The notes: a model not told the origin generated them from the letters alone. A stretch of 64,000 bases of DNA from Endomicrobiales bacterium (GCA_016929635.1 JAFGIL010000010.1:829-64828); one strand, 5' to 3'. Shown: positions 15,901-64,000, counted from the first letter of the stretch. Numbers and translations: made by a program.

Positions 15901-18900
15901 TCGGTATATCTGTCAAACAAATCCATCACCATATTTTTTGCAAGTTTGTGAGGGAAGAAAGTTCTAATCGAATCCTTATATGCATTCCATACAGGCCCGC
16001 TGAGTCTGCTTACAGGGCCTCGTTCAATTATTGAACGCACATCCATTGGGATAATATCCTCATGCCCTAATTCCAGAGCATGGGCAAGCTCGTGTTCAAT
16101 TATTGTGTCCTGCAGCCATTCAGGAAGCCTGGACATTAATTTTTCATTTAAATATATCACATGGCTTATAATAATATTCCCTTCACCTTCCGTAGAACCC
16201 GTCAAAGTTTTTGTCTCTGCTGGCGTTAGAAATCCGAGCCTTTCGGAAGTAGCAGTTACCTCAATATTCGGATTCTTTTCTTTAAGGATTTTTTGAACAC
16301 TTTCTAATTTCGCTTTAAAATGTTCACTTCTATCTTCCGTTTCACCTCTACCCAAGGCTGCGGCCACAACAGGAAATGTCAAAGGCCCGTAAATACCAAC
16401 AACAAATATACCTACTCCAAGGAATCCTCCAACTATCGCTCCGCCAAGGCCTACGGTTAAAAGCGCTATTATTGCTCCTATATTAAAAATGCCTGCCCCG
16501 GCAATAACTCCGACAGTAAGCATTGTTATGACTCCGCTTACTATTCCGCCATAAGCAGCAGCTGTCCAGGTTTTCGCATTACTCAAGCCATACCCTAACT
16601 CGCCAAAAACACTGAATCTCTGGTATGACGCTAGAACAGGAAACGTTAATCTTGTTAAAGCCGGTAAATTAAACGATTGCCCCGCACTTCTTCCGATAAG
16701 CCATAAAAAGAATTTCTGCACCCATCCAAGCCTTTGGTATTCATCCATTCTGTGAAGTTCCATTAACTCCGCATCCAATGCAGCAAGACTTTCGAGTATT
16801 TCTAATTGACGATCTCTGAGCTCATCCATTTCATCTGCGGAAACTGCTAATCTTGGGGCTCCCGGTTTTCTTTCTTTTGCATGTGCCTTAATTACTTCTC
16901 TTGCTTCTGCCAATTCTGACCGGTTTACCTGATGCCCTTTATCTGACATCATCAATCTATTCGCTCTGGATACAATAGCGTTTGCCTCATCCAGTGTCAT
17001 TCCAACAGCGATTTCCGGCACATCTACAACTGACGGCAAAGTTGACGGCACATCCTTTACTATTTGGGCCGGAGTAGCGTGTGTCACTTTGGTTACAGAA
17101 GCGCTAAGGGATCTTCTGGGTTTTATTGTCTTTTTTGGCGCGCTCAGAGCTTCCTGGATATCGCTGAGTTCACCATATAAATTTGCTGCGCGCACATAAA
17201 GCCTTGCGCGTTCTTCCTGTATTGCTAATTGTGCTTGTGTGAGCATACCTTCGCCGGAAGAAGAAACACTTGCAATCTGAGCCCTAACATAAGCTAACCA
17301 TCTCCTGAATTGCTCAGATTTTTCTTCATTCGATAAATTGCTGACTTGCACCATTTCCGGTGACAACATCTTTGCCCGTCCGGGAACTTTACTCTGCCTG
17401 GATGATGTGGTTCCATCGCTAACCTGAGTTATGCGTATATCTCCAAACCATGCCTGGATTTCTTCAGGTGTTGTATCTGCATCGGTTATTAATCCGAATT
17501 CAAAACCAGCCAAATCTGCCCTGTAACGCCACACCCTGTATGCTCCGTCTTGAGCCAAATTTGCCAGTTCAGCACCTCTTACTCCGGAATTATTCTGTAA
17601 TCCCTGATTAGGATTAGATTGGTAACCTTCGGTAAAAATCATAAAGAACCTTACTCCCTGTGTTTCTAGCGCAGATAATCCCTGGTCAACCTGAGCTATA
17701 TTAAGCCCTGCTGAAACCGGTGCAGGTTCAGATTCCGGGATTGGCGTTGACTCAGGCGGTGCTGCAGGTTCAGCTTCTTGCGAAGATTCTTGTGCAGGTT
17801 CAGGTGGAAGCTTTTCTGTTGTCCCTTTTTCTGGGAGTAATTCTTCCTTTGCAACAGCCTTTTTCCCTCCTTCCATCGATGATTCAGGCTGTTCTACAGG
17901 TACTAATGGAGATGCAGGTTCTGCAAGACCAAGCTTGGCTTTCATAGAAGGTGTTAAAATCCAACTATATGATTCAGGATATATATATCCAACTAGAACT
18001 AGAGTTATTAACGCGGGTAGAATCAATAGCACTCCTATAGTTGTAACGAAGGATCCGGATTTACCTGTAACACCTTTTCCATCAGCAGATATACTAAATC
18101 TCTCAAATAACCATTTAGAAGATAATATTGCAAATACCATACCTATTCCAGTAAATATACCAAGAGCTACTATTGAACCTATCAATATTTTTGTAAGCGT
18201 ATTGATAACTCCAGTAGCCTGTGAAATCATACCTATTGAAACTCCCGCAGTTGATAATAATGCAATAATAGCAACAAGACCAATAACTGTTACTAGTAAA
18301 CCTATAAATCCTGCAAAGAGCACCCTGGCAACACCTCTTGATCCTCTTATATTCGATCTGCGCACATACTGACCACCCCTATTCCATTGACCTGGACGAA
18401 ACCATGGATTTCCGGTCCCGTACTCTCTAGTAGATCCACTGCACCATATTAAATAAAATAAAATCACCCCAACTAAAATTACTGGAACAGAACAAACAGC
18501 ACCAACAATGAACCTTTTAAAAGGAGTATCCATGCCAAACGCATTTAAAATGTCTACAATTGGACCCGGATATTCTTCAGAACCTGTTTCTATCTTATCT
18601 TTTGGAGGAACTTCAGCTTTTACTCTTTCTCGTTCATAGTCTATTACTCCCCTTCTCCTCTTTGCAGGTTCGGCTAAGTCTGTATCAGAATCAACACTAA
18701 CTTGAGTTATATTTCTAATTCCTTGAGTTTTGATGATATCAACTATAGCTACTAGGGAATATCCACCTATAAACAGAAATAGAAAGATGGCACCTATAAG
18801 ATGACGTTTTCCTCTAAGCTTTCTGGCAAGCCATGCAAGACCAAGAAAAAACATAAATCCAACTACACCATAGGCCATAAGCTTTCTATGCGTTTCAGAT

Positions 18901-47586: not shown

Positions 47587-48174
47587 TTAGGATTTTACCC
47601 TTTTAGCATGTTTTTTGATTGGAACCCAGAAAATTACCCCGCAAGACGAATACTGGGGTTCAAAAGTTTTGTTGTTTTTTAACTTCACGCCTATCTTTTC
47701 GCTGTCTATTATCTTAAACACGTTATCCAGGACAGCAAAAGAAGTAAGCTTATATTGGTTTGTAAGAGTGCAATCTTCCTGTTTCGCCTCTTCATTTATC
47801 AGCTTTGTTATGAAATTAGCGGACTGATCAAGCGCATCCAAACCGATAGAGTGAAGGATTTTAGCCAGGATATTCTCTTCCGTACTCTGAACGTCTCTTA
47901 TTTCACGCTCTATTTCACTTCCTATCGTTACCAGATAAAAAGTGGCTGCCACCCAGTTCTCGGGCATTTCTATTCCTAAATCAAAATTCACTTTTTCCCT
48001 ATCCACAGTATCGTAAATAGCTGCAGAACTGATGATCCTGTCGGCATGGTCCTTTTCCCTTTTAACAGCTTCCTCAATCTGGGGTGTAATCTCGGATACC
48101 TTAGATATTGTTTTTAAAAGCTGCTGTATATTGCGCGTGCGCAGATTAATTTTATATTTTTTTATTTTTCTCAT
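47587..48174 (-). CDS. Hypothetical protein
   Basis: 195 aa with plausible coding character and operon position. I could not recognise a family. Confidence 0.45.
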   Translation of the reverse strand: MRKIKKYKINLRTRNIQQLLKTISKVSEITPQIEEAVKREKDHADRIISSAAIYDTVDREKVNFDLGIEMPENWVAATFYLVTIGSEIEREIRDVQSTEENILAKILHSIGLDALDQSANFITKLINEEAKQEDCTLTNQYKLTSFAVLDNVFKIIDSEKIGVKLKNNKTFEPQYSSCGVIFWVPIKKHAKRVKS

Positions 48175-48188
48175 ATGACCCTAAAATA

Positions 48189-49097
48189 CTAACGCCTTTT
48201 TTCCCTGCGTTTGCGGTATAATTCCCACTCGTAAACCAACGGGCTTGCAATGTATATGGATGAATATGTACCAACTATAATTCCGATTACAAGAGCAAAG
48301 GCAAAATCATGTATAACTTCGCCCCCGAACAAAAACAGAGCCAGGACAACCAGAAAGGAAGTAAGAGAGGTTATGACGGTTCTTGAAAGCGTCTGATTAA
48401 TACTGGAGTTTATTACCGTCGGCAAATCGCTCTTTGCCAGCATCCTGAGATTCTCACGGATTCTGTCAAATATAACGATAGTATCGTTAATCGAATATCC
48501 TGCCAAAGTCAGTATTGCGGCAATTACTGTAAGTGTTATCTCTTTATTGAATATTGAAAAAATTCCTATAACTATAAACACATCGTGCGCTAACGCCAGC
48601 ACTCCGGCTATTCCCCATAAACCGGAATGGAATCTGAAGGCAACGTACACGATTATTCCAAGCAAAGAAAAGATTATGGCAAAAAATGCCTGTTTGACCA
48701 GGTGATGGCCGATCGCCGGCCCCACGTACTCGCTTCTCTCGATTTCAACCTTGTTATCCGGATATTTCTCGCTTAATGTTTTCACTACTTTTCTAGCAAA
48801 TCCTTCTGCATTAAAATCTGCCTTCTTTATCCTGATAATCACGGAGTTATTGTCAGAGCTCTGCAGCTCATAACCAATAATATCTGATTCATTCAGTGTT
48901 GAACGAAGGTCATCCATATTCATCTGTTTTTCAAAAGCCAGCTGCAATAGAATCCCTCCCTTGAAATCTATACCCAGGTTAGGGCCGCCTTTAACAAGCA
49001 AAGATATCGCTCCCGATAAAATAACAACAACAGAAACTATAAAAAATAAGCGTCTCTGTCCTATAAAATCAATGTTCATCTTTTTTAAAATCTCCAC
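48189..49097 (-). CDS. secF: Protein translocase subunit SecF
   Basis: 302 aa with GIDFKGGILLQL and a six-TM SecDF core ending in YSINDTIVIFDRIREN. Confidence 0.95.
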   Translation of the reverse strand: MEILKKMNIDFIGQRRLFFIVSVVVILSGAISLLVKGGPNLGIDFKGGILLQLAFEKQMNMDDLRSTLNESDIIGYELQSSDNNSVIIRIKKADFNAEGFARKVVKTLSEKYPDNKVEIERSEYVGPAIGHHLVKQAFFAIIFSLLGIIVYVAFRFHSGLWGIAGVLALAHDVFIVIGIFSIFNKEITLTVIAAILTLAGYSINDTIVIFDRIRENLRMLAKSDLPTVINSSINQTLSRTVITSLTSFLVVLALFLFGGEVIHDFAFALVIGIIVGTYSSIYIASPLVYEWELYRKRREKRR

Positions 49098-49154
49098 TAT
49101 AAACCTCCAATCTTTTAATCTGTTTAACCTGCAAGGTTATACAGTCCTAGCAAA

Positions 49155-50570
49155 TTATAAACTAAGTTTTTCTATTATTCTTTCCTGGAAAAGCAGTTCA
49201 TATATTGATTTTGTAACTAAAATTGCAGTAAACATGCTGACCAGAATACCTAGAGTCAGAGTCACGGCAAAACCTTTTACAGGCCCCGTGCCGAACTGAA
49301 ATAAAAATATGGCAGCGATCAGAGTCGTAACATTTGCATCCATAATCGTGTGAAAAGCTTTCTGATAACCCGCATCAACCGCAAGCCTGTGGGTTTTACC
49401 TGCTTTCAGTTCCTCTCTGATCCTTTCCAATATCAGAACGTTTGCATCAACCGCCATACCCAGGGTCAATATAATACCTGCCATACCGGGCAGTGTAAGC
49501 GTAAACCTGAAGTATGCCATTAACCCAAGTAATAATATAATATTAAGAAAAAGAGCGAAGTCAGCTATCAAACCGGAGAACTTGTAGTAGAACGCCATAA
49601 ATATAAGTACGACTATAGCACCAAAAATAGTTGCCTTTACTCCTGCCTTAATTGAATCCTCACCCAATGTAGGCCCTACGGAACGCTCCTCAATAATCTT
49701 TACCGGTGCAGGTAATGCACCAGCTCTTAATATAGTTGCAAGCAGTTTTGCATCTTCCATGGTAAAATTACCTTCAATAATAGCCTTTCCGTCGGGAATA
49801 CGCGTTCTTATTACGGGAGCTGATTGAACAACCCCGTCTAATACAATAGCCAGGTTTCTTTCTATATTTTCTCCTGTTACGCGTGAAAATATTTTTGCGC
49901 CGTCCCTGTTAAACTCAATGGAAACGTGAGGATAACCAAACTCTCCGCCGATATTCACCTTTGCGTCTACAAGATAAGCCCCTGTAAGCTCAGGTGATGA
50001 TTTTAAAATGTAGTAACGGTCTTCCTTGCCGGGAAAAACCGCATGCCCTTTAGGAATCATTTTTACGATTTCAGGAAAATCGTTTAGCTCCTCAAAACGG
50101 GCTTCTTTTTCCCTCAACTCCTCTGCTATGTCACCCAAGGCTGTACTCTCATCCACCAGGCGAAATTCCAGAAGTGCGGTTTTGCCGATTAAATCCTTTG
50201 CTCTTTCCGGATCTTTTATGCCGGGCAGCTGAATTACAATCCACCTTTCTCCCTGGCGTGCAATTAAAGGTTCTGCAACGCCAAACTGGTCCACTCTGTT
50301 ACGGATTATCTCAATTGCCCGTCCTATCGCATCATTTACGTCAACACCCGGCTCAAGCTTATCAGCATCCAGCTCAAGTACCAGATGTATTCCTCCTCGG
50401 AGGTCCAATCCCAGGTTCAGGATTTTACTTACAATCTTGTCTTTGAGCCTCTCCCTTTTATCCCTTTCCTGTTGAGACAATCCATACCACTCAACTGTGG
50501 GGTAAAGGAAATAAATTGCCAATCCCAAAAAAAGCACAGTTACCAAAATTTTTACTTGCAATCTGGACAT
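49155..50570 (-). CDS. secD: Protein translocase subunit SecD
   Basis: 471 aa with LGLDLRGGIHLVLE, a periplasmic P1 domain, and the TM core with AVDANVLILERIREE. GAGG lies 6 nt upstream of the ATG. Confidence 0.95.
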   Translation of the reverse strand: MSRLQVKILVTVLFLGLAIYFLYPTVEWYGLSQQERDKRERLKDKIVSKILNLGLDLRGGIHLVLELDADKLEPGVDVNDAIGRAIEIIRNRVDQFGVAEPLIARQGERWIVIQLPGIKDPERAKDLIGKTALLEFRLVDESTALGDIAEELREKEARFEELNDFPEIVKMIPKGHAVFPGKEDRYYILKSSPELTGAYLVDAKVNIGGEFGYPHVSIEFNRDGAKIFSRVTGENIERNLAIVLDGVVQSAPVIRTRIPDGKAIIEGNFTMEDAKLLATILRAGALPAPVKIIEERSVGPTLGEDSIKAGVKATIFGAIVVLIFMAFYYKFSGLIADFALFLNIILLLGLMAYFRFTLTLPGMAGIILTLGMAVDANVLILERIREELKAGKTHRLAVDAGYQKAFHTIMDANVTTLIAAIFLFQFGTGPVKGFAVTLTLGILVSMFTAILVTKSIYELLFQERIIEKLSL

Positions 50571-50590
50571 ATATTACCTCGCTTTCTTTT

Positions 50591-50685
50591 GGGACAGACA
50601 CTTTATGTTTTATATGTTTCTATTTAAAATACTTAGTAATTAATATACTGTACAATAAACATATAAAACATAAAGTGTCTGTCCC
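50591..50685. repeat. 95-bp palindromic element: 29-bp perfect inverted arms + 37-nt AT-rich loop
   Basis: GGGACAGACACTTTATGTTTTATATGTTT (50591..50619) has its exact reverse complement at 50657..50685. TTTT flanks both sides. It fills the gap between the HD-gene stop and the secD RBS. Confidence 0.9.
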
Positions 50686-50687
50686 TT

Positions 50688-51374
50688 TTAAAGAAGTTTT
50701 TTTCCGTTTATTATTAATTCAAACTTACACTTCAGAAACTCTGCTGCTCTTCTGCACATTATCATCCGGGACATGAATATTTCAAAATACTCCATTACTT
50801 TAGAAATATTCTGGTCAACATTCAATTCCAGGGTAATAATCTTTTTATTGCCGTCGATTTTCAGGAAAGACCTTTCAACGGCAAAGTTTACCCTGTCATG
50901 AATATCTACTGCGATCATGCTGGGATTACGCACCCGTGCTTTATGAACATCAGATTTATCCGCCAGTATCAATGCTGCTGCAACCGGATTAACGGGATCT
51001 CCTATTTCCTCCTCGTGGTTTCCGATAGCTGAAATTACCATAGCAATTTCATTAGGGTCAGCGCCCATTTGTTTTAAAATCTTCATAGAAATAAGAGCAG
51101 CCGACTGTCCGTGATCCTGACGGTTCACGACATTTCCTATATCATGCAGATACCCTGCTATTCCTGCCAGCTCCGGCATCGGATGTTCATAACCTAAATG
51201 ATTCAATACATTCTGAGCTACAGAGGCAACCAGACTCACATGCCTGAAACCATGCTCTGTATATCCTACTGCTCCCAAATAGCTGTTGGCAGCCTCGATA
51301 AAATTATTTACCGTATGGTTCTTTTTTACTGCCTCAAGAGTAATCCCGGAGTATTTTTGTTTGGTTTTTACCAT
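50688..51374 (-). CDS. HD-domain phosphohydrolase-like protein (paralog 1)
   Basis: 228 aa with YTEHGFRHVSLVA, GYLHDIGN and ILADKSDV. Collinear with the protein at 54150..54818. Confidence 0.7.
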   Translation of the reverse strand: MVKTKQKYSGITLEAVKKNHTVNNFIEAANSYLGAVGYTEHGFRHVSLVASVAQNVLNHLGYEHPMPELAGIAGYLHDIGNVVNRQDHGQSAALISMKILKQMGADPNEIAMVISAIGNHEEEIGDPVNPVAAALILADKSDVHKARVRNPSMIAVDIHDRVNFAVERSFLKIDGNKKIITLELNVDQNISKVMEYFEIFMSRMIMCRRAAEFLKCKFELIINGKKLL

Positions 51375-51469
51375 ATTTTAGCTTTCAGCTTTCAGACATC
51401 AGTCTTCAGCAAAAAATATTTATAATTGTTTTCAAAGCAGACAGCTGATGACTGAAGACTGACGACTTA

Positions 51470-51853
51470 TTATTTTACAACCTCAGGAGTAACCACCTGC
51501 TCAGAATTAGTAACCACATTACTTATAGCCGACTTTGATATCTGGACTTTAACACCGTCGGCAATCTTGACTTCCAAAACATTACCTTTAACATTAACAA
51601 CTGTCCCGTACAAACCGCCGTTAGTTATAATCTTGTCATCCTTTTTTACGGAATTCAGCATTATCTGGTGTTCTTTTGCCTTTTTCTGCTGCGGCCTAAT
51701 CAACAAAAAATAGAAGATTCCGAATATCACAATTAAAGGAAAAAAACTTCCGAAAGGGCTTTGCCTGGGTACAGCCTCCTGTGCATAAAGGGCAGGCGTA
51801 AAACCTGCTAAATAAAATAGTGCTAAAATTATCTTTGTTGGCTTAAAAGACAT
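51470..51853 (-). CDS. yajC: Preprotein translocase subunit YajC
   Basis: FPLIVIFGIFYFLLIRPQQKKAKEHQIMLNSVKKDDKIITNGGLYGTVVNV. Confidence 0.9.
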   Translation of the reverse strand: MSFKPTKIILALFYLAGFTPALYAQEAVPRQSPFGSFFPLIVIFGIFYFLLIRPQQKKAKEHQIMLNSVKKDDKIITNGGLYGTVVNVKGNVLEVKIADGVKVQISKSAISNVVTNSEQVVTPEVVK

Positions 51854-51868
51854 AAATATCCTCCTGTA

Positions 51869-53020
51869 TTATTTCTTTTTTTTGTCCTTTTTTTTACTCT
51901 TTTTTCCTTCTATCATTTCTTTATCGCTTTCCATTCTTTGCTTAACCATGACAAGTACTTTTGCTGCACGAACGGCAATTGATTTGTCTTCATCATCAAG
52001 AAGTGACTCTAAATCTTTAATATCTCCCTGATTTGCCATAGCCTCAAGTGCTTCGAGTGCTTTTATTTTTGCATCCCTTTCGTCGGATTTCAATACTCCC
52101 AGCACAAACTCTTTACCCGAATCATCTCCTAATATGAATAAAGACTTGCTGGCTGCAATACGTACCAAACCGTTGGGATCATCTAAGATGTCAAGCAATG
52201 CTTTAATGCTTTTATTCTCTTTAAAACTAAACATACCTAAAGACAAAGCGGCATTTTCTCTTACTATAGCGTCTTCATCCATCAGAAGCTCCCTGATTTG
52301 CGGTATACTTTCTAAATCGTCCAATTTACCCAAAGCAATGCAGGCTTCTACCTTGGGCTCCCGGTTCCAGTCTTTTAATCTCTCTCTGATAGCAGGAGCA
52401 ACTGTGGGATCACCCATGTCGCCTAAAGCTTCCGCAGCTTTTGCACGCACCTGGTACTTTGTACTTCTCAACGCAGAAACGAAATCTTCTTTTACGGTTT
52501 TATCGCCTAATTTCGCCAAGGCAACAAGGCATGCATCAACAACTCTTCCGTCGTTGTCATCAAGATTTTTATTTAAAATCGTTATTGCACCCTTATCTCT
52601 AATATCTCCTAAAACTGTAGCTGCCTGAACACGGAGAGTATTCTTGGCTATGGCGCGTGCCCTTTCAAGAGGCGCCGCCTCTTCGGAAAGTTCGGGTTTT
52701 GTATCAAGGATATTGACTAAAACAGGCAGTCCGGAATCATCACCTAGTTTATATAGCGCTTCCGCAGCCTTAATACTCACGAAATCATTGTTGTCGTCCA
52801 GCATATCTCTTAATATAGGTATGTAATCCTGGCTTCCTATCTGAAGTATTGCTTCTATTGCTAAACTCCTGACTTCACGGCTCTGATCATTCAATCCAAG
52901 CTGTATCACATCCAGCTCATCAGAATTGCCTTCGCTCATCAAGTTTATTGAATTACTGGTAATCAGTATAATAGAAATAAATAATAATAAATAATGTTGT
53001 TTTTTCATATATTTTTTCAA
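51869..53020 (-). CDS. HEAT-repeat (PBS-lyase-like) protein with signal peptide and Lys-rich tail
   Basis: Repeated V/IRxxAAxALGxxGD units, e.g. VRSLAIEAILQIGS, VRAKAAEALGDMGD, VRENAALSLGMF, VRIAASKSLFILGD. Confidence 0.7.
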   Translation of the reverse strand: MKKYMKKQHYLLLFISIILITSNSINLMSEGNSDELDVIQLGLNDQSREVRSLAIEAILQIGSQDYIPILRDMLDDNNDFVSIKAAEALYKLGDDSGLPVLVNILDTKPELSEEAAPLERARAIAKNTLRVQAATVLGDIRDKGAITILNKNLDDNDGRVVDACLVALAKLGDKTVKEDFVSALRSTKYQVRAKAAEALGDMGDPTVAPAIRERLKDWNREPKVEACIALGKLDDLESIPQIRELLMDEDAIVRENAALSLGMFSFKENKSIKALLDILDDPNGLVRIAASKSLFILGDDSGKEFVLGVLKSDERDAKIKALEALEAMANQGDIKDLESLLDDEDKSIAVRAAKVLVMVKQRMESDKEMIEGKKSKKKDKKKK

Positions 53021-53022
53021 CG

Positions 53023-54818
<1,796 letters not shown>

Positions 54819-55030: not shown

Positions 55031-55086
55031 CGTAGGGGCGACTTTAGTCGCCCTTAATAAAAAGGGCGGATAAATCCGCCCCTACG
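55031..55086. repeat. 56-nt compound hairpin: two inverted 25-nt units, each with its own GC mini-hairpin
   Basis: cgtagGGCGACtttaGTCGCCctt / aataaa / aagGGCGGAtaaaTCCGCCcctacg. It starts 5 nt after the stop codon of the >=2,956-aa ORF. The internal stems differ by compensatory changes (GAC/GTC versus GGA/TCC). Confidence 0.8.
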
Positions 55087-55091
55087 AAGAA

Positions 55092-58000
55092 CTACGCAGC
55101 GGAAGTTATTGCCTGATGCAAAGCAGTATCAAAGGAGTCATCCAGCAGGTCTTTTAATGATTCTTTTATTTTCAAATCCCTGATTTTATCTATTATTCCA
55201 AGCAGATACTGTTCAAATTCAGCATAAATCTGTGCCCTATCGCTGACTGCTGCCTGCTCGTATATCTCTTTGTAGCTTAAAACCCTGCGCCTGATGCCGT
55301 CAAACACTACTCTGTCTCGCTTAATATCTTTTTCTGTTTTAACAGTAAACTCTTCTTTATCAAACTTAGACAATATTTCAGCTATTTTCTGCCCTTCACT
55401 GACCTCATCAGACTCCTCTTCCAGTATTCCTAAAATTTCATTGAAAAGCTCCTCATGCAATTCCTTTACTTTAATACCATGATCAAACTTATATCCTAAA
55501 TTATATGCTTCCTTTTTCTTCTCTTCAGGAGTCCTGGGCCCCATAATATTAGTGATTAAATTCAAAATCTGAAGTTCTGCAACCTGCGCCCTTGCAACGC
55601 TTTCTGCTTCCGCAAAATCATTATCCAGCGTTAACCATACGGCTCCGGACTTACCGGCTTTTAACGTTATATTCCTTATCCTGGTTTCAGTTTCTTTATC
55701 CACTACAAGCTCAGTAAAGTTAAGTTTCAAAGCTTCATTCGAACCTTCGGCTACTTCAGGGATTTGATCAGGATCTGTAATAAGATGTTCTATCACAAAA
55801 GAACCGTACCTGCTTTGAATTATATTCTTAATTTCCTCCGCATTTCTGATATCAGCCCCAAAGGAAATCGAAACAAGGAAATCTTTATCATCCATAAGAT
55901 TGAATAAATCCTGGAAATCACTAAAATCCATTCTGCCTTCCAGATTTATATTAAAATGTACCCCATCAAAACCTAAAGTTTTTATAAGTGTGATTTTATC
56001 CGTATTTGATAAGTCTTCTATACTGGATATATTGCATCCTGCGACCAGTTTCTTACCGGATTTTCCAGCAGTTTTTACAAGCATACTTATTTGTGATTGC
56101 ATGGCTTTATCTTTATCTACAACCGCCTCTTTAGGAGCCATCTCTGAACCCATTTCTTCCATCTCACCCAGCTGAGATTCATCCAGCCAACCCAAATTTA
56201 AAGAACCATTCTCAACCAAGTTGTCTATCCGCACTATACCGCTTCTTTCCATTACAGATCCATCACTGGGTTTGCTGATTAAACCGGCTATATCCGTTAT
56301 TGTATTTATTCCTCTCTGCCAGAGTCCAACTTCAACTGCAAGACCGGTACCTCTTGCAAACGATTCAACTGATTTCTGCCTTGCAATCTGGCATAGATCA
56401 ATCTTGAACTCTTCTATATCGTCTTTTCCCTGAATGATATGCGCGTTGCCAAGCAATGTATCTCTGTCTATCTCATCAACAGAAGTTTCAGGTGAAGAGA
56501 TATTAGGGATATCCTGATCAAATCCTTCTCTTCCAGCAGAAGAAATAACAATATCCGGCATAAGCAGGCTTCCATCCTGGAATCTACTCGGCAATCCCAG
56601 TTCTTTAAGCTGCCTGACTAACCCTCCGTTCTTGTGCACATTTTTCCAGAACTCAACTGCCAATAATCTTAAAAGGGCATCTACATCCAAATCTTCAATG
56701 TCTCCCAAGACTTCTTCCGGATTTTGTATATGCAAATTAATTGCGGAACCGTTTTGAGTAGGTATAACTTCAGCCCAGACTCTAAAGGCTTTTGCAGCTC
56801 CTTCATAGTTAAGCACTAAATTAGGTTTCAACTCCAAATAATCTTTCACCTGCGAGCTTTCCGCATAACCGGCAAACCTGATAACATTGAATCCTGCTCC
56901 AGCAATGGCATTCATCCTGTCTTGTGCAACAGTATCCGTCTCCCCTGAATCATTAATGAAATATACTGTTGGTGACTGCGCCACACCAAAGTTTTCCCTT
57001 AAAAATCTGCATCTATCCATCGTATTTTTAACTACTTTTTTCACCAAACTTTTTATACTTACCGTCTTTCCCGCTATCTCAATCCCGCTGATAACAGCAT
57101 TCGGTGTATCATGTTCGGATCTGAATTTGTCGGCTATTACTTGAACTACTCCTGCAAATATTCCCTGTGGGGATCGGGCATTCCTTTCAAAAGATTCTAG
57201 CAGCGGGGCTTGTGCTGCCACACTGCCCAATGCCGCTAAAACCGGAGACTGGCTGTATTTTAATTCTGGTTTAATTGGGACATTTTTTGCAGGATTATAT
57301 TCACCTATATCCAACAATACAGCCTTAGCAGCTTCAGAAAGTATCAAATTCGAATCATTCTTCATTCTATCCTCTACTTCCGATATCAAAGCAAAAATAT
57401 GGCTTTCAGAACTCCTATCCATACCATATTTCGTAAGCCACAGTTCGATTACTTGTCTTTTAATCTTTCCTATCTGTTCTCTATTTTCTGCTTTTGTATC
57501 GGTAACCTCTTCGAAGTGTTCCACATCATAAAAATATGGATGCCCATCCCGAACAATAATATTAAAAAGAAAATGAGATGAAACAAAATACCCGCATTCA
57601 GCAACTTGATCCCCGATAGCTTCTAATTCTCTAAAAAACTCCCAGGTTATTTTCCCTGCTTCTTCCGAAAGGCCGTATAGATTATCACCTTCCAAATACT
57701 CCATTAGAATTGCCCTTCCCCAATATTCACCTGTTTCACTCTTTTCATCCAGTTCCGGAGCTCCTGCAACTTTATTCTCATTCAGCTTATATAAAATCTG
57801 CATCTCCTTGAGGAATAAATCCACAAAACGTTCATGCCTGCATAATTTTAACAGCTTTACTTTCGGACTTCCAACAGAGTCTCTGTCTGCGTTATCATTT
57901 ACTATCATCCCAAAAGCATTAACTCCCCTGCCGGCAATATCTATGAGCTGCAAATTATCATCTATTTCCCGGACCAAATGGTACTTCAATATCTGCGGTA

Positions 58001-61000
58001 AAGCATTTTGTAAATATGATGCGAATTCAGCTACTGAATCAGTGACTGAAACTCCATTTTTAAGAATATCCTCCCTTGCTATAAAATCCCAGTAGATATC
58101 AACTATATTAGTATCTAATCTTACACCCTGTAAGTAATTAATCATAAATTGCCTTGTCAGCATCCGGATTAATTCATTTATTTTTTGTTCAACCTCCGGA
58201 GTAAATTCATCTTCAAAATCTCTTATTATTCCCATATATATGTGCTTAAAAGCAAGATATGTGGAGTATTCAAAATAAGAAATTCTTTCAAATATCTCGC
58301 TGGAGATTTTCCTGGAGTTTAATATTCTTATTAAATTATGGAAGTTATCTGAAGTTCTTTCAGTTGTAATATCTAAACCACTAATCTGCAAATATACACT
58401 CATTAACTCATATTGAGATGTATCCGGAACATTTAAAGCTAGATACTCATCAACTTCGTGTTTAGGAATAAGACTTATCAGTTCAATAGGCGTTCTTCTT
58501 ATCGCTCCTTCTGTGATTTGAATGATTTTATTTCCATCCGCGCTAACAACAACTCTTGCATCTGCCATTTTACCATCATCAGTAACTATATATTCAACGG
58601 GAATTATTTCCAATCCATAATCATCACTGAATTGATTATATGAATCCTCTAATGCAAGAAGCTTATTATACATCGACCTGCTTGTTCTTCTGTATTTTTC
58701 TCTTATTTGTTCCAAAGACAATGGGACATATTCTCTCTGGGCTGATTTTAACTCCCCAAAAACACTGTCTGTAATTTGTGCAGATATCCTCTGCAAATTA
58801 CTTTCTGCCGTTAACCACACAGAAAGCTCTTCAATAGGTTTAAATATCCTTTCTATTATCTCTGCAAACAACTCAAGGACTCTGCCTCTTTTAACACCAA
58901 GGGCAACTTCAGGCAATTGGGTGCTGCTCCTATTTTCCTTAATTCTCGATACTATTTCTTCCATTTCCTCGCGTGAAGTCTTTATATCCTTTATTTCCCA
59001 ATCATCTTTCTCCTTTGAATAAAAAGAATTGACTTCCGATAGGAGTAAATCCAGTTTATCAGCAGGTATATGTTTGAATATTTCTTCTAGCTCTTCAGGA
59101 GAATGAGAAACAATTACTCTAGAAATACTATACCCACTATTAGTTTCAAAAGCACTCAATTCATCTTGATTTAAACTGTTAAAATCATAAGCCGCTTCAC
59201 TTAAAATACTTGCCCTTAGTTCTACTGGTAAGTTTTTAAAAGCTGATATAAATTGAATATGTAGCCCCGCGCCAAAAAACAACAATTTTCCAGCAGCTTT
59301 TAATCCCTGATTCCCGAAACGAGACAACAATATAAAAGTATTCTCAATTTCAGCAACTGCCCAAGATACATTCTCACCTGCCAATTCTTGTATTCTATCA
59401 AGTTTATCTTCAAATACTCTAAACAATCTATGAACAGAAAGTTGCTTATCCATCTCAGAGATGACTTCTAATGCCCAATCATATTCCCTTTTATAGAATT
59501 CTTCAAAACTTGTCGCAAACCTTTCGTAACCAACTTGTGCTCTTGATTGGAAGTAAGAGATGTAATAACTCTGTTCCTCATCTTCCTGAGATCTATTCAA
59601 CTTAACAGCACCTTCTATATCTTGAGGCCTGTTAAAAACTTTCTCTATCGCTACTGCCTGCCTTGCCAACGTAAGGGCAAGTTCTGAAGCTTCCCTGTCA
59701 ATTAAAAATATATCATCAGCATATTCTGCTGAGGCGCGCATAAGCCCGCCATCCGGATTTAATACTGCCTTTTCTTTTTTTGTCGCTTGTTCATAGCTAA
59801 TAATCTTATCCTGAGATTTGCTATAAACAAACCGATGTGCTCTGCCTGGATAACGGTCCCCCACAAGACCTTCACCAAGGCCCTGGGCTATTTCTATTAC
59901 TACAGTATCAGTATTGTGCTCATCGGGATCCGCAGTATAAATTACGAAAGAATAATCCGCATCTACTGCTTCAGTTATCTGCACCGCAGGATATACATCA
60001 AAATGATCCAATCCCATTTTTTGTCTCTCAAGATAAGCCCCCACACTCCAGATAGATGCCCAAACGTGTTTTACTGCCATCTTTACATCTTCATCCATAA
60101 CATTAGAAAATGTACCATATTGACCCATGCCAAGGCCCGGATATTCATCTAAATCTTCACCATTTGTCCCGACTCGCACGAACACACCATTATCTCTGAA
60201 AGTTAAGTCTTCAATAGCATTTTTTATACTGTGTCTTCCAAAAATCCTACCATGAACTTCTACTTCAGGCTTATCCCAGATAGAATCCGGGATATTCATT
60301 CCAAGAATAAGCTCCCGCACCCTAGAAAGTCTTGTAATAATGTCATTTATATCATTATTGTTTATAGTCTTAACAATATTTACAATTTCTGTTTCAACTC
60401 CGGGATTTGCATCTAAAACTCTTTTAAACGTTGCATAAGGTAAAACAGGACCCCAATTTACACGACTTGCATTTTCGTCACCCGAATATTCAGCATTATA
60501 AACTGACAATCCAGTTGATAATTTATGTAGATTTGCAAATTTGCTGCTGGCTTCTCTTGGATTTCGTGTTTCACTCCATTCAAGAACATTCTTAGGTGTT
60601 GTTAAATCAACTTCAGCAAGTTCAGGTTTTGGTTTTTTAGGCTTGTATGACTCATAATCAGATATCTCCTGGTCAGTTGCCAGCCTTAACTCAACATTAT
60701 CTTTCTCTACCTTTATATAAACCCATTTATCTTTAAATTTTTCCAGATCAGCAAGGTTTTGGCTGTTCAAAACAATATGCGGTATCCCCCAAGCACGGGC
60801 ACGTCCCTGAGCATGAGACAGCCCTGCCGGTTCATCACAGGTTATTATACCCATAGGTCTTGCATAAGTCGGATCTGCGGTAGGATAATATTCAATTGCT
60901 ACAATCTCATTGTCCTTAATTGCCCAAAGTTGCTCAAAATCAGAAATGTCAGATATAATTCTTAAAACACCAACACTTTCTCCAATAACTTTTGGTGTAT

Positions 61001-63962
61001 ATCTAGTTTCTGATGAAGTTTTTATTAACAAGGCTTCATGTTTTTCTAGTGCCTGTGAATTATATCTATAATGTTCAATGAATGTAACTATGATTAACCT
61101 GGCGAGTGTTCTGATAAACCTGAGGTGGGTATATTTTAATGTTTCGTTATATGCTTGGCTCAACGCCTTTTGAATCTGGCTCATACCTGCTTCCATCTGT
61201 TTCATATACTGTTCAGGACTGCCCCTTAAATCATGACCTTTTAAGAATTTTTGCAGTCTTTCATCGTTTGCAATACCGTTTTCAAGCCCAAACATATAAA
61301 TCATTAATATTTCAAACAGCTCAAATGCAGGTGCAATGTATTTTGCTGCAATCCTGAGCCTTAAAGATGGTTTTGCCCCAGCGTAAAAATCATCCAGGTC
61401 TTTTTTTGCGTTCCAGAACCAGAATAACGGGATTAACCATTTAATCACTTTTACAGTGCTTGCTTTCATAAGAAAATCTGCTTGATCTTTTTCTTCCGCT
61501 GTATCGGGTATTTGGTTTTTCATTTTAATAGTAAACTTAATTCCTTTTTTTCCGTCTTTTTCCCATTTTTCCGCTACAACTGCAGCACCTAAAGCCGACA
61601 CATACATGTGTAAATTCTGAAGCCACCATTCAAAACCATAGCTTACAGATCCTGATGCATTCTTCATCGGCTCTCTTAAAATATAGTCATTCGAATAAGG
61701 AGACTGCAGAGCCCTATTTATTTTGGACAACTGTTCCCCGCTCTCATCATTAATTAAATGACAAACACATACATACTCAATAACGATTTCATCGTCGCTT
61801 TGTTTAGCATTGAAATAACTGTTCTGATCAACCATTCCCATTTCCCTGGAGACCTTCCAGAGGTTTAATAAAAGATTATACATCGCTGCATGGTCAAAAG
61901 AAGCATAGGTATCGCCATCTTCAACATTGATTTTTACCCAGGTATCCGGCAATGTAGTCGTAACCCAATGTTTCAGCTCTTCCTGTGACACTAAAGGTTC
62001 TCTTGAGATAAGCAGATTTATTCTTCTAATTGCGTTCAGCATAATTGCCATACGGGAATCAGGTAAACCTAACCTTTGACATATATCATCATTTGATGCC
62101 AGGTAATCACTAATTATCTGCATGTTTCTTTTCATTGAAACTCTTATTTCGGTGCCATCTAGCATAAGCAATCCCAAATTGACTGATGACTCTCCTTTTT
62201 CCCTAACATCTCTTTCCCATTTGGCAAATTCTGTCTGCCATGCTTTAAATCTTTTGTCATTTTTAGACAAATCCATGTAAACATTTCTCATTTCAGGAAT
62301 TCCGTCAATACCCATACCCAAATAACCCCGCAGCAAGGCTACCTGATTATCCAGATCCTCAGCTCTTTCCTGCAGGCTTAATGCATCCCCGAACCCTTCA
62401 GGCACGGATGTTGTTACTGGTTTCTTATAATACTTATCATATTCTTCCTGGGCAATTTGCTGATATAAGTTATCATATACATTCCTCATTATAAATTCCG
62501 TTGCTTTATTACGAATACCCAACGCTGTTGAAAGCAGTTCTCTTGGATATTTATTAAGCATTACAATCTTTATTCTATCATCAACTTGCTCATCAAAAAT
62601 TACTTCAAGCACATTGTAAAGTTCTTTATAATATTCAAAACCTATGTCTGTAGGCAAATTATGAGCCACTAAAATCGGCTTTAACTGGCTCCAATATTGC
62701 TCGATCTGTTCAATAGACGCTTTATAAATAAACTCCCACTCATCAGAAAAAGTTAATCCTGTTTCCTGTTCATAGATATCCGCTAATTCATCCCCTAAAC
62801 CATGCTCCCTGCCGCTCTTTCTAAGATCCATTCGTGTAACGTAAAGCACATATCCGCGTTTATTAAATCTTTGTTTCTCTCCTAAGGGAGTAAATGGCAT
62901 ATACAGCATATCAGCCAAAGGAGGGGTTGATTCTTTGGGCCTTGAAGTAAAATTTCCTGCGTCTAGCAACCGTACCTTTCCATCAATCAGCCCATACTGT
63001 TTCATATATCCATCTGCAAGATATCCGCCACGCCTCATTGCTTCTATATCAAGCCTTGCTTTTTGCCTTACTATATCTTTAGCTCTGGCAGAATCTCCGT
63101 CCTGCAAAGCTTTCTCAAGGGCTTTAGGCAATTCCTCTGCTTCAATTTGATAGATTACATGTTTAAAATCATGCTTTCTTCCTTTACTTGAAAACTTTGC
63201 CCTGAGACCGATAGCCACATCTGCAATTAAATCAGGAATCAACCTTCGGGCTTCCATGTATCCTCTGGTTGTAAATAATTCCGCCATAAAAGGTGTTCTT
63301 CCTGTTCTACTATGAATAATTTTCATAACAAACGAAAGTCTTCCTTGAGGACGGTCCTTAGAAGTACGACGATATACATCTGTCTCATATCCTTCAGTTA
63401 TTACATCATCAAAAGTACCCCTGGATGCCATCCTCATCATTTCACTAACCGTATATACTCCACCTATCCTTCTAGCTTGGTCTTGCTCCTGAATGGCACG
63501 ATACTCCTGTGATTCTAATAAATCGTTAAAGGCCTTTTCCCACTGTTCTATTATTTCATCATCCACTTGCACTTCTTTTGCTTTAACTGTTTGTACTTCT
63601 TCATCCTTAGCTGCTTGTCCCGTAGAACTGATGTATTGATTTACTATTGCAGCAACTATTTCAGCCTGCCTTCTGGTTCTTAGCGCCCGGAAAGGACTTA
63701 CTTTCATCACATCATCAGCTGTTACTGTCCTTCCTGTCACCAGCTTGCCGAGTTGTGAATTTGCCAGCTTTACCCCTGATAATGCATTTCTAAGTGAAGG
63801 ATGTGCTTTTAACTCCGACCTTAATTCCTTTAGACTCACTGTTTGCCGCCCTGATGAGCTACGGCTCATACTCGTCAGAGGCCACCATTCCGGTAAAATG
63901 CCTTTTAAGACCAAATAGTTATTATGTGAATGAAATTCTTTGCTCGGGAAAATCGAAAGCAA
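55092..63962 (-). CDS. Second giant protein, >=2,956 aa, with a GWD-like dikinase module (5' end uncertain or possibly outside the window)
   Basis: 8.9-kb ORF. The track start is a TTG, and the frame has no stop between 63962 and the window end at 64000. The first ATG is at 63869. Contains a PEP-utilizer His domain, a PPDK_N-type ATP-grasp, kinase-like segments, and a module shared with the 7,833-aa protein. Confidence 0.8.
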   Translation of the reverse strand: MLSIFPSKEFHSHNNYLVLKGILPEWWPLTSMSRSSSGRQTVSLKELRSELKAHPSLRNALSGVKLANSQLGKLVTGRTVTADDVMKVSPFRALRTRRQAEIVAAIVNQYISSTGQAAKDEEVQTVKAKEVQVDDEIIEQWEKAFNDLLESQEYRAIQEQDQARRIGGVYTVSEMMRMASRGTFDDVITEGYETDVYRRTSKDRPQGRLSFVMKIIHSRTGRTPFMAELFTTRGYMEARRLIPDLIADVAIGLRAKFSSKGRKHDFKHVIYQIEAEELPKALEKALQDGDSARAKDIVRQKARLDIEAMRRGGYLADGYMKQYGLIDGKVRLLDAGNFTSRPKESTPPLADMLYMPFTPLGEKQRFNKRGYVLYVTRMDLRKSGREHGLGDELADIYEQETGLTFSDEWEFIYKASIEQIEQYWSQLKPILVAHNLPTDIGFEYYKELYNVLEVIFDEQVDDRIKIVMLNKYPRELLSTALGIRNKATEFIMRNVYDNLYQQIAQEEYDKYYKKPVTTSVPEGFGDALSLQERAEDLDNQVALLRGYLGMGIDGIPEMRNVYMDLSKNDKRFKAWQTEFAKWERDVREKGESSVNLGLLMLDGTEIRVSMKRNMQIISDYLASNDDICQRLGLPDSRMAIMLNAIRRINLLISREPLVSQEELKHWVTTTLPDTWVKINVEDGDTYASFDHAAMYNLLLNLWKVSREMGMVDQNSYFNAKQSDDEIVIEYVCVCHLINDESGEQLSKINRALQSPYSNDYILREPMKNASGSVSYGFEWWLQNLHMYVSALGAAVVAEKWEKDGKKGIKFTIKMKNQIPDTAEEKDQADFLMKASTVKVIKWLIPLFWFWNAKKDLDDFYAGAKPSLRLRIAAKYIAPAFELFEILMIYMFGLENGIANDERLQKFLKGHDLRGSPEQYMKQMEAGMSQIQKALSQAYNETLKYTHLRFIRTLARLIIVTFIEHYRYNSQALEKHEALLIKTSSETRYTPKVIGESVGVLRIISDISDFEQLWAIKDNEIVAIEYYPTADPTYARPMGIITCDEPAGLSHAQGRARAWGIPHIVLNSQNLADLEKFKDKWVYIKVEKDNVELRLATDQEISDYESYKPKKPKPELAEVDLTTPKNVLEWSETRNPREASSKFANLHKLSTGLSVYNAEYSGDENASRVNWGPVLPYATFKRVLDANPGVETEIVNIVKTINNNDINDIITRLSRVRELILGMNIPDSIWDKPEVEVHGRIFGRHSIKNAIEDLTFRDNGVFVRVGTNGEDLDEYPGLGMGQYGTFSNVMDEDVKMAVKHVWASIWSVGAYLERQKMGLDHFDVYPAVQITEAVDADYSFVIYTADPDEHNTDTVVIEIAQGLGEGLVGDRYPGRAHRFVYSKSQDKIISYEQATKKEKAVLNPDGGLMRASAEYADDIFLIDREASELALTLARQAVAIEKVFNRPQDIEGAVKLNRSQEDEEQSYYISYFQSRAQVGYERFATSFEEFYKREYDWALEVISEMDKQLSVHRLFRVFEDKLDRIQELAGENVSWAVAEIENTFILLSRFGNQGLKAAGKLLFFGAGLHIQFISAFKNLPVELRASILSEAAYDFNSLNQDELSAFETNSGYSISRVIVSHSPEELEEIFKHIPADKLDLLLSEVNSFYSKEKDDWEIKDIKTSREEMEEIVSRIKENRSSTQLPEVALGVKRGRVLELFAEIIERIFKPIEELSVWLTAESNLQRISAQITDSVFGELKSAQREYVPLSLEQIREKYRRTSRSMYNKLLALEDSYNQFSDDYGLEIIPVEYIVTDDGKMADARVVVSADGNKIIQITEGAIRRTPIELISLIPKHEVDEYLALNVPDTSQYELMSVYLQISGLDITTERTSDNFHNLIRILNSRKISSEIFERISYFEYSTYLAFKHIYMGIIRDFEDEFTPEVEQKINELIRMLTRQFMINYLQGVRLDTNIVDIYWDFIAREDILKNGVSVTDSVAEFASYLQNALPQILKYHLVREIDDNLQLIDIAGRGVNAFGMIVNDNADRDSVGSPKVKLLKLCRHERFVDLFLKEMQILYKLNENKVAGAPELDEKSETGEYWGRAILMEYLEGDNLYGLSEEAGKITWEFFRELEAIGDQVAECGYFVSSHFLFNIIVRDGHPYFYDVEHFEEVTDTKAENREQIGKIKRQVIELWLTKYGMDRSSESHIFALISEVEDRMKNDSNLILSEAAKAVLLDIGEYNPAKNVPIKPELKYSQSPVLAALGSVAAQAPLLESFERNARSPQGIFAGVVQVIADKFRSEHDTPNAVISGIEIAGKTVSIKSLVKKVVKNTMDRCRFLRENFGVAQSPTVYFINDSGETDTVAQDRMNAIAGAGFNVIRFAGYAESSQVKDYLELKPNLVLNYEGAAKAFRVWAEVIPTQNGSAINLHIQNPEEVLGDIEDLDVDALLRLLAVEFWKNVHKNGGLVRQLKELGLPSRFQDGSLLMPDIVISSAGREGFDQDIPNISSPETSVDEIDRDTLLGNAHIIQGKDDIEEFKIDLCQIARQKSVESFARGTGLAVEVGLWQRGINTITDIAGLISKPSDGSVMERSGIVRIDNLVENGSLNLGWLDESQLGEMEEMGSEMAPKEAVVDKDKAMQSQISMLVKTAGKSGKKLVAGCNISSIEDLSNTDKITLIKTLGFDGVHFNINLEGRMDFSDFQDLFNLMDDKDFLVSISFGADIRNAEEIKNIIQSRYGSFVIEHLITDPDQIPEVAEGSNEALKLNFTELVVDKETETRIRNITLKAGKSGAVWLTLDNDFAEAESVARAQVAELQILNLITNIMGPRTPEEKKKEAYNLGYKFDHGIKVKELHEELFNEILGILEEESDEVSEGQKIAEILSKFDKEEFTVKTEKDIKRDRVVFDGIRRRVLSYKEIYEQAAVSDRAQIYAEFEQYLLGIIDKIRDLKIKESLKDLLDDSFDTALHQAITSAA
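56580..56980 (-). other. Module shared with the 7,833-aa protein (copy in the second giant ORF)
   Basis: See 15440..15880. Anchors conserved in the same order: VxF, AG[IF]NxIRFA, [TA]ES, FR[IV]xAE, NG, LHI, LGLP. Confidence 0.65.
57500..57950 (-). other. Protein-kinase-like segment with a degenerate catalytic loop (approximate bounds)
   Basis: Gly-rich IAGRGVNAFG, VKLLKL, FLKEMQILYKL, hinge-like ILMEYLEG, SSHFLFNIIV (no HxD Asp) and PYFYDVEHF. Pattern-level resemblance only. Confidence 0.3.
59600..60560 (-). other. PEP synthase / PPDK / glucan-water-dikinase type ATP-grasp nucleotide-binding domain (PPDK_N-like)
   Basis: FVRVGTNGEDLDEYPGLGMGQYGTFSNV (compare VRSSAxxEDLPxxSFAGQxxTFLNV), VKHVWASIWSVGAYLERQKMGL, PAVQITEAVDADYSFVIYTADP and IEIAQGLGEGLVGD. 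Confidence 0.75.
60660..61010 (-). other. PEP-utilising-enzyme mobile (phosphohistidine swivel) domain
   Basis: VAIEYYPTADPTYARPMGIITCDEPAGLSHAQGRARAWGIPHIVL matches the G-G-x-T/S-S-H-A-A-I-x-A-R-x-x-G-I-P signature. The putative phospho-His codon is at 60813..60815. Confidence 0.7.
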
Positions 63963-64000
63963 TAATAAAGTGGTAAAAATAATATAGGTTAGCGTGGGTG

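Follow-up and report, generated by a model that had tools for sequence, protein, structure and literature searches.

A predicted histidine-first dikinase cassette with a conserved helical domain in giant proteins of Endomicrobiales and allied bacteria

To our knowledge, plant and algal glucan dikinases are so far the only characterised enzymes in which a phosphohistidine (His) domain stands ahead of a PPDK_N-type ATP-grasp domain. We found this arrangement in a giant open reading frame (ORF) encoded in a stretch of 64,000 nucleotides from an Endomicrobiales bacterium (GCA_016929635.1, JAFGIL010000010.1:829-64828; hereafter the window), where a third, all-helical domain completes a compact cassette. 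A survey of Omnitrophota giant proteins counts PPDK_N among the 20 domains that occur in them most often and reads it as pyruvate/phosphoenolpyruvate (PEP)-interconverting; its accessible part makes no mention of a preceding His domain, a missing TIM barrel or a conserved helical domain (West-Roberts et al. 2023, 10.1101/2023.11.21.568195). Its 'Archaeovorins' resemble the protein described here in being giant multidomain ORFs from the same poorly cultured phyla, and the closest relatives of our cassette lie in Omnitrophota ORFs of >3,500 to >7,300 aa; the present protein differs in its size (~2,900 aa), in its origin from Endomicrobiales and in having no detected transmembrane segments. A 2026 Omnitrophota preprint describes kinase/phosphotransferase clusters in giant proteins and does not mention a dikinase cassette. 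The occurrence of PPDK_N in giant proteins has already been reported; what is new is the His / ATP-grasp / novel helical domain architecture within the dikinase superfamily.

The swivel (His) domain, the ATP-grasp and a helical domain of ~200 aa form one conserved 700-aa cassette at aa ~955-1650 (residues are numbered throughout from the ATG at 63869). We read this unit as a self-contained, catalytically competent 'X, water dikinase' that would hold its acceptor at the helical domain, and we give this reading a probability of roughly 0.6. A preliminary description of the window had noticed the first two domains; the cassette with its third, helical domain is new relative to that description and could not have been seen from the window sequence alone.

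The assignment of the PPDK_N ATP-grasp is beyond doubt. Pfam model PF01326 matches aa 1143-1423 with E=1.4e-29 (103.9 bits against a cutoff of 27), the NCBIfam models of PEP synthase (PEPS) match the domain at ~1e-29 with scores far below their full-length cutoffs, and a PDB sequence search returns PEP synthase at 6e-19 and rifampicin phosphotransferase (RPH) at 1e-11. The preliminary description had proposed a PPDK-type ATP-grasp downstream of the His domain, and every motif that it quoted is where it was said to be: VRVGTNGEDL begins at aa 1231, GQYGTFSNV at 1249, VWASIWS at 1269, PAVQI at 1294, YSFVIYTADP at 1306 and AQGLGEGLVGD at 1328. The domain conserves K1110, R1232, T1253, D1417, E1419, Q1441 and R1443. 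K1110 lies in the column of a GxK..NL motif that is invariant in alignments A1 and A3, and we take it to be the equivalent of K22 in RPH and pyruvate phosphate dikinase (PPDK); the D1417-I-E1419 and Q1441-x-R1443 motifs are invariant across the family. In a pairwise alignment, R1232, T1253 and E1419 stand opposite RPH residues R117, T136 and E297, which the RPH authors probed by mutagenesis (PMC4844700). An AlphaFold2 (AF2) model of aa 945-1660, built from an 11-sequence alignment (pLDDT 83.6, pTM 0.74; an earlier model of aa 940-1560 reached pLDDT 76), resolves three domains. Foldseek searches of the PDB with the ATP-grasp domain confirm its fold and place it closest to RPH (5hv1, E=7e-18; 5hv6), HpeI (9goj) and PEPS (2ols), with E-values from 1e-12 to 1e-18. 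The PEP/pyruvate TIM barrel is missing, as the preliminary description had supposed: a Pfam search of the giant protein at E<=1 did not find PF02896 (PEP-utilizers_C).

The phosphohistidine domain with H1019 is statistically weaker than the ATP-grasp, but it is real, and it lies where the preliminary description had put it. The segment AGLSHAQGRARAWGIPH starts at aa 1015, which makes H1019 the candidate His. Of the two Pfam families that had been suggested, PF01326 gave the clear match reported above and PF00391 only a sub-threshold one on the isolated domain (E=0.04, 13.9 bits against a cutoff of 23.1); PF22973 (GWD1_pHisD) gives E=0.007 in the whole protein and E=1.6e-4 with the isolated domain (21.7 bits against 27). 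When six clade members, five of which match PF00391, were combined into a profile, it matched the PEPS 8a8e swivel domain with E=4e-4, and H1019 falls on the catalytic His. The residue, set in an LSH..RAR motif, is invariant among 20 and among 11 aligned homologues; when the alignments were checked for loss of the catalytic His or of ATP-binding residues, both were found to be kept. In the AF2 model, aa ~957-1075 form a beta/beta/alpha domain with H1019 at the N-terminus of the helix that follows the GIIT strand. Foldseek matches this domain to chain 3t05_A of S. aureus pyruvate kinase (probability 1.0, 112 columns, rmsd 3.1), presumably through the extra PEP-utiliser-like C-terminal domain of that enzyme, and also to RraA, which we take to be a swivelling beta/beta/alpha protein. 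It is the profile match, the invariance of H1019 and the predicted fold together that support the domain.

The third domain follows the ATP-grasp directly and is conserved in P0041-46, P0049 and P0002. Its AF2 pLDDT is mostly 80-94. Although no other part of the cassette is less conserved, it has invariant polar positions, H1536 among them, in all eight sequences that possess it, the standalone enzymes included. Two of these, P0049 and P0002, hold only the three cassette domains, which makes the helical domain the best candidate for the acceptor site; the proposal draws on its conservation and on an analogy with RPH and PEPS, which have acceptor domains of their own. We also considered a circular permutation in which the helical region that precedes the His domain in alpha-glucan water dikinase (GWD) had moved to the C-terminal side, and rejected it (hhalign probability 0.1%).

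The cassette recurs as a block in proteins that share nothing else with the Endomicrobiales ORF. A word-index search with aa 951-1499 returned P0002 (770 aa, 31% identity) and P0003 (961 aa, with a receiver (REC) domain), followed by many GWD-like proteins (PF01326+PF22973), which ranked ahead of PEPS/RPH-like ones. When aa 1500-2699 were searched exhaustively against representatives, other very large proteins proved to conserve the ~150 residues that come directly after the ATP-grasp, and by local BLAST P0042-P0046 (1,433-3,453 aa, mostly truncated at contig ends) are 43-50% identical to aa 958-1650 as a single block. Over the same block, P0049 (691 aa, Margulisbacteria) and P0002 show 28% identity, and here the block is essentially the entire protein. 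A genome scan found relatives encoded by at least 519 loci in species-representative genomes, and in nearly all of the best 80 loci the His domain precedes the ATP-grasp, so that the His-first arrangement is widespread in bacteria. The full 700-aa cassette is present at L004 (51% identity), L005 (47%), L006 (45%) and L007 (43%, over its truncated match), in open frames of >1,000 to >7,336 aa from metagenome-assembled genomes (MAGs) labelled Planctomycetales, Omnitrophota and Elusimicrobia; a metagenome scan added L084 (>5,347 aa) and L085 (2,108 aa). Across P0042-46, L004-L007, L084 and L085, the identity is 43-51%. When the whole giant protein was compared by tblastn with 163 fetched loci, no high-scoring segment pair (HSP) fell outside aa 935-1660; the cassette is therefore conserved while its flanks are unrelated. 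Downstream of the cassette, the other giants share sequence among themselves and not with the Endomicrobiales protein. The cassette is thus a portable unit, found in otherwise unrelated giant proteins of Omnitrophota, Elusimicrobiota and allied MAGs and as a free enzyme of 690-770 aa. Such a compact unit, which also has free forms, can be expressed and assayed and opens an experimental way into giant proteins, which are nearly all 'dark' apart from it.

The company that the cassette keeps differs from one giant to the next. In an Omnitrophota MAG (L005, ORF >3,529 aa) it is accompanied by adenylate kinase, guanylate kinase, PRK/uridine kinase, GGDEF and radical SAM/B12 domains; in L006 (>7,336 aa) by AA_kinase, VTT and HATPase_c; and in L084 (>5,347 aa) by SecA DEAD/PP-bind domains, HATPase_c and a second, partial PPDK_N. 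Most partner domains in the scanned giants belong to enzymes of nucleotide metabolism or phosphotransfer and not to those of glycogen. As for the standalone forms, P0049 is followed by pyruvate:ferredoxin oxidoreductase (PFOR; region L008:12197-15634, Margulisbacteria GWF2_35_9), and P0002 has a canonical PPDK two genes away (region L001:6254-8893). Neither PFOR nor PPDK could be upheld as a conserved neighbour, for neither association recurs in other fetched loci, and the genes downstream of the standalone loci have no homology to the C-terminus of the giant protein.

Dikinase chemistry is most likely, judging from homology with PPDK, PEPS, RPH and GWD, which all work with a pair of ATP-grasp and swivel His; the mechanistic precedent has been summarised (PMC4844700, PMC12167813). 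ATP would be bound by the ATP-grasp domain, and H1019 of the N-terminal swivel domain would attack its beta-phosphate to give pyrophosphorylated H1019. The gamma-phosphate would then be lost to water, leaving AMP and Pi, and the swivel domain would carry the remaining phosphate to an acceptor held, around H1536, by the all-helical domain that follows the ATP-grasp rather than by the TIM barrel of PEPS/PPDK or the starch-binding array of GWD. The predicted net reaction is ATP + acceptor + H2O -> AMP + acceptor-P + Pi, via (pyro)phosphorylated H1019. As acceptor, a glucan is less likely than a soluble small molecule or the side chain of a protein. The preliminary description had favoured a macromolecular or envelope substrate; we found no carbohydrate-binding module, no signal peptide and no convincing transmembrane helix, and the neighbouring genes are housekeeping genes. 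The lack of transmembrane helices, in particular, leaves an envelope or polymer substrate unsupported.

Several observations weigh against this reading. As a single sequence, the His domain stays below the Pfam gathering thresholds. The helical domain has no relative in Pfam (searched member by member), in a PDB profile search or in the GWD-like profile; Foldseek and the profile searches return for it only 14-3-3/TOG and helical bundles of designed or generic kind, with E>0.01-0.1. The predicted dikinase activity of the clade comes from homology, and the putative acceptor role of the helical domain only from conservation and the analogy with RPH and PEPS. Finally, relatives of ~28% identity from Acidobacteriota, Myxococcota and Clostridia, as well as P0003, are without the helical domain and have in its place an N-terminal domain (proteins of 670-720 aa from Blastocatellia, Myxococcota and Clostridia) or a REC domain (P0003). 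It could be, therefore, that the acceptor is bound elsewhere or by another protein.

Among described enzymes, RPH and the two-component small-molecule dikinases HpeHI, CreHI and PpsAB give the best structural matches to the ATP-grasp (Foldseek E ~1e-16 to 1e-18; TM 0.81-0.84 when normalised to the isolated RPH ATP-grasp 5hv6), and the cassette, with its equivalents of R117, T136 and E297, likewise combines an ATP-grasp, a swivel His and a separate non-TIM acceptor domain, the last a candidate here. The order, however, is His, ATP-grasp, acceptor instead of ATP-grasp, acceptor, His; identity is ~20%, and the superposition on full-length RPH is good only over the ATP-grasp (rmsd ~4 A over ~360 columns versus ~18 A over ~700 columns). 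We rejected an RPH-type enzyme on the grounds of this order, the absence of a RIF-type domain and an NCBIfam rph score of 69 bits against a cutoff of 999.

The preliminary description leaned towards a genuine alpha-glucan/phosphoglucan water dikinase acting on a glycogen-like polymer, and was right that the domain order is that of GWD and phosphoglucan water dikinase (PWD; EC 2.7.9.4/2.7.9.5). These enzymes share with the cassette the LSH..RAR motif around the His and the lack of a TIM barrel, GWD1_pHisD, though sub-threshold, is the best Pfam match for the His domain, and the closest proteins outside the cassette's own clade are PF01326+PF22973 proteins, many of them labelled alpha-glucan water dikinase; published surveys also find GT5 starch-synthase, GT1 and phosphoglucomutase (PGM) domains to be common in Omnitrophota giants. 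We nevertheless consider this assignment unlikely and rejected a true GWD. Neither CBM20, CBM45 nor any other carbohydrate-binding Pfam family matches at E<=1 (the presence of a CBM45 model in the Pfam copy used is unconfirmed), starch-binding modules and the N-terminal/central region of GWD are absent (alignment A1), and hhalign gives the helical domain a probability of 0.1% against the GWD-like profile. Whereas GWD-like sequences carry RSDSNGEDL..GAGLYDS after GLGE, the equivalent here (VRVGTNGEDL..GMGQYGT) precedes VWAS, a PEPS/RPH-like position for the SNGEDL/GAGLY motif, and the protein is bacterial, with an extra C-terminal helical domain and a giant polypeptide around it. No glycogen genes lie nearby, nor are there GT5 or PGM domains in the giant protein or in the five related giants scanned. 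PEPS and PPDK have in common with the cassette the ATP-grasp and the swivel His domain (with GIP after the His helix), and the R-x-S-x-N-x-EDL motif is in its PEPS-like place. Very unlikely, in our judgement, is a pyruvate-PEP enzyme of PPDK/PEPS type whose active site would be completed by a divergent TIM barrel, either in another part of the protein or in trans. It is the interpretation given for PPDK_N of Omnitrophota giants in the published survey, and it could appeal to the weak KDGP-aldolase-like TIM-barrel segment at aa 2588-2698 and to the standalone relatives, which adjoin PFOR or have a true PPDK two genes away. The order of the domains is the reverse of that in PPDK/PEPS, however, PF02896 is absent from the related giants scanned at E<=1e-3 as it is here at E<=1, the TIM-like match is sub-threshold, ~1,150 aa distant and not conserved in relatives, and the PFOR and PPDK neighbourhoods do not recur at other loci; identity with PEPS/PPDK was rejected on order and on the missing PF02896. 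At least for the cassette clade, the data argue against pyruvate/PEP enzymes, which corrects the current reading of PPDK_N in giants of Omnitrophota, Elusimicrobiota and related lineages.

A further alternative is a protein-directed phosphotransfer, in which the phosphate on H1019 would pass to H1536 acting in the manner of a histidine phosphotransfer (HPt) domain, to a receiver domain or to another part of the giant protein, as an alternative to histidine kinases. In its favour, the all-alpha domain has an invariant His (H1536), a PF00072 receiver takes the place of the helical domain in P0003, HATPase_c and GGDEF signalling domains occur in related giants, and PTS Enzyme I, of the same superfamily, phosphorylates HPr. 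We think it unlikely all the same: no resemblance of the helical domain to HPt was detected in sequence or fold, its only matches being generic helical repeats (E>0.1), the REC domain of P0003 could equally be a regulatory input, and we know of no PPDK_N-containing enzyme that phosphorylates a protein with ATP. Its explicit form, an ATP-driven phosphorelay from H1019 to a protein acceptor (H1536, or a receiver Asp as in P0003), is quite unlikely; if true, it would be the giants' own non-canonical 'histidine kinase', converting ATP to AMP, and may control kinase-like and other modules on the same polypeptide. We likewise assign little probability to a catalytically dead structural or ATP-sensing scaffold element. 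The greater part of the protein is orphan and bears no enzymatic signature, and the kinase-like segment seems, by eye, to have no catalytic Asp; yet all tested catalytic positions of the cassette, H1019 included, are conserved, and the cassette keeps its 43-51% identity across phyla where the flanks diverge completely.

Table 1. Features of the giant ORF and its 3' end, in window coordinates; residues are counted from the ATG at 63869
Feature	Coordinates	Strand	Basis or remark
Giant ORF	55092..63869	-	2,925 aa counted from ATG 63869
N-terminal orphan region, ~945 aa	61035..63869	-	No homologues or domains detected
Swivel phosphohistidine domain, aa ~955-1075	60645..61007	-	Profile match, sub-threshold Pfam, AF2 fold
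H1019 codon, predicted phospho-carrier His, motif GLSHAQGRARAWGIP	60813..60815	-	Invariance in alignments A1, A2 and A3
PPDK_N-type ATP-grasp, aa ~1100-1447	59529..60572	-	Pfam, NCBIfam, Foldseek
All-alpha domain, aa ~1455-1650, ~12 helices, candidate acceptor-binding domain	58920..59507	-	Conservation, AF2
H1536 codon, GxGxH motif, invariant His of helical domain	59262..59264	-	Alignment
Kinase-like (APH-like) segment, aa 2006-2144	57438..57854	-	PF01636 E=0.0014, below threshold
~160-aa domain, aa 2268-2429	56583..57068	-	Shared with the window's other giant ORF
Partial, weak match to a TIM barrel (KDGP aldolase), aa 2588-2698	55776..56108	-	PF07071, sub-threshold
Terminator-like GC-rich hairpin and T-run	55062..55083	-	Begins 9 nt past the stop codon of the giant ORF

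The remainder of the giant protein (Table 1) gave few matches. A full-length search with all 2,925 aa returned only the protein itself, which is uninformative about domains since scoring was confined to the 8,000 candidates with the most words in common. For the N-terminal ~945-950 aa there was nothing at E<=1e-3 in the word-index protein search, no Pfam match, no PDB match below E=1 and no tblastn HSP in the 163 loci. With aa 1651-2925, sequence searches of the PDB gave either nothing or non-significant matches, and in the exhaustive representative search with the C-terminal 1,200 aa only the kinase-like stretch was matched beyond the helical domain, by two proteins. The kinase-like segments of the preliminary description find faint support in the PF01636 match and in the resemblance of aa 2006-2144 to P0048 and, in two regions, to P0047, a giant protein from Endomicrobiales that matches Pkinase weakly; a catalytic Asp is not evident by eye. 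The TIM-barrel-like match is not significant (PF07071 E=2.3e-4, 21.5 bits against a cutoff of 26.7; PDB 3nzr E=0.53). The hydrophobic helices that had been described at about 61270-61460 do not hold up as convincing membrane helices, their 19-residue Kyte-Doolittle mean peaking at 1.53 with charged residues included, and membrane anchoring was rejected on this ground. Nor does the N-terminus have a hydrophobic stretch of the signal-peptide kind; with neither a convincing transmembrane helix nor a signal peptide, we treat the protein as cytoplasmic.

Candidate starts of the ORF are a TTG at 63962 (2,956 aa), the ATG at 63869 and a GTG at 63839 (2,915 aa). Its translation equals, start residue excepted, the full length of P0001, the GenBank entry 'MAG: hypothetical protein JW871_01205 [Endomicrobiales bacterium]', which has 2,915 aa from GTG 63839 and lies on a 64.8-kb contig. 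A length of at least 2,956 aa, and possibly more, had been proposed. The frame is indeed without a stop up to base 64000, the window edge; the GenBank protein suggests that 2,956 aa is probably an overcount rather than an undercount, and the low-complexity, AT-rich translation upstream of 63869 suggests that the protein is probably not longer than that. Downstream of the ORF follow genes for HD, tgt, HEAT-repeat, yajC, HD, secD, secF, kdtA-like and heptosyltransferase products. A phage origin was rejected: a PHROGs search gave no phage signal and the neighbours are chromosomal housekeeping genes, so that the locus belongs to an ordinary bacterial chromosome.

Some further observations concern more distant relatives. 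P0003, from a Logan assembly, has a His domain, an ATP-grasp and then the PF00072 domain in the position of the helical domain. Pyrinomonadaceae/Blastocatellia MAGs (L017, L020, L029, L042-L044, L048, L055, L065 and L071) encode His-first relatives of 670-720 aa with ~28% identity and without the helical domain; a ~500-aa gene, by eye group II decarboxylase-like (pyridoxal phosphate (PLP)-dependent), precedes them and overlaps their start by 4 nt. The conserved neighbours at the Acidobacteriota loci may reflect phylogenetic closeness, in a distant subfamily without the helical domain. Another relative, P0004, begins with a lipoprotein-like signal sequence. Among the GWD-like sequences (alignment A1; P0007-P0031 set), the position of RSDSNGEDL..GAGLYDS after GLGE looks like a relocated ATP-grasp segment in canonical GWDs; P0007, a GWD-like protein from Deltaproteobacteria, also has the phosphate-loop motif before VWAS, like the cassette clade and PEPS/RPH.

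Elsewhere in the window, the usual tgt-yajC-secD-secF cluster (47587-54818, minus strand) is broken by the HEAT-repeat protein (51869-53020), and two HD-domain proteins (54150-54818 and 50688-51374, minus strand) flank or interrupt it. The window's other giant ORF (12978-36479, minus strand; 7,833 aa) has Pfam matches only in a TPR block at ~aa 3000-3250; its aa 6839-7011 (window ~15447-15965) are 28% identical by blastp to aa 2268-2429 of the cassette protein (pairwise E=5e-8). Over positions 1-64000, ORFs of at least 150 aa lie nearly all on the minus strand, and the GC skew is below 0 in every 2-kb bin (~-0.05 to -0.31), which fits one replichore arm with co-oriented genes.

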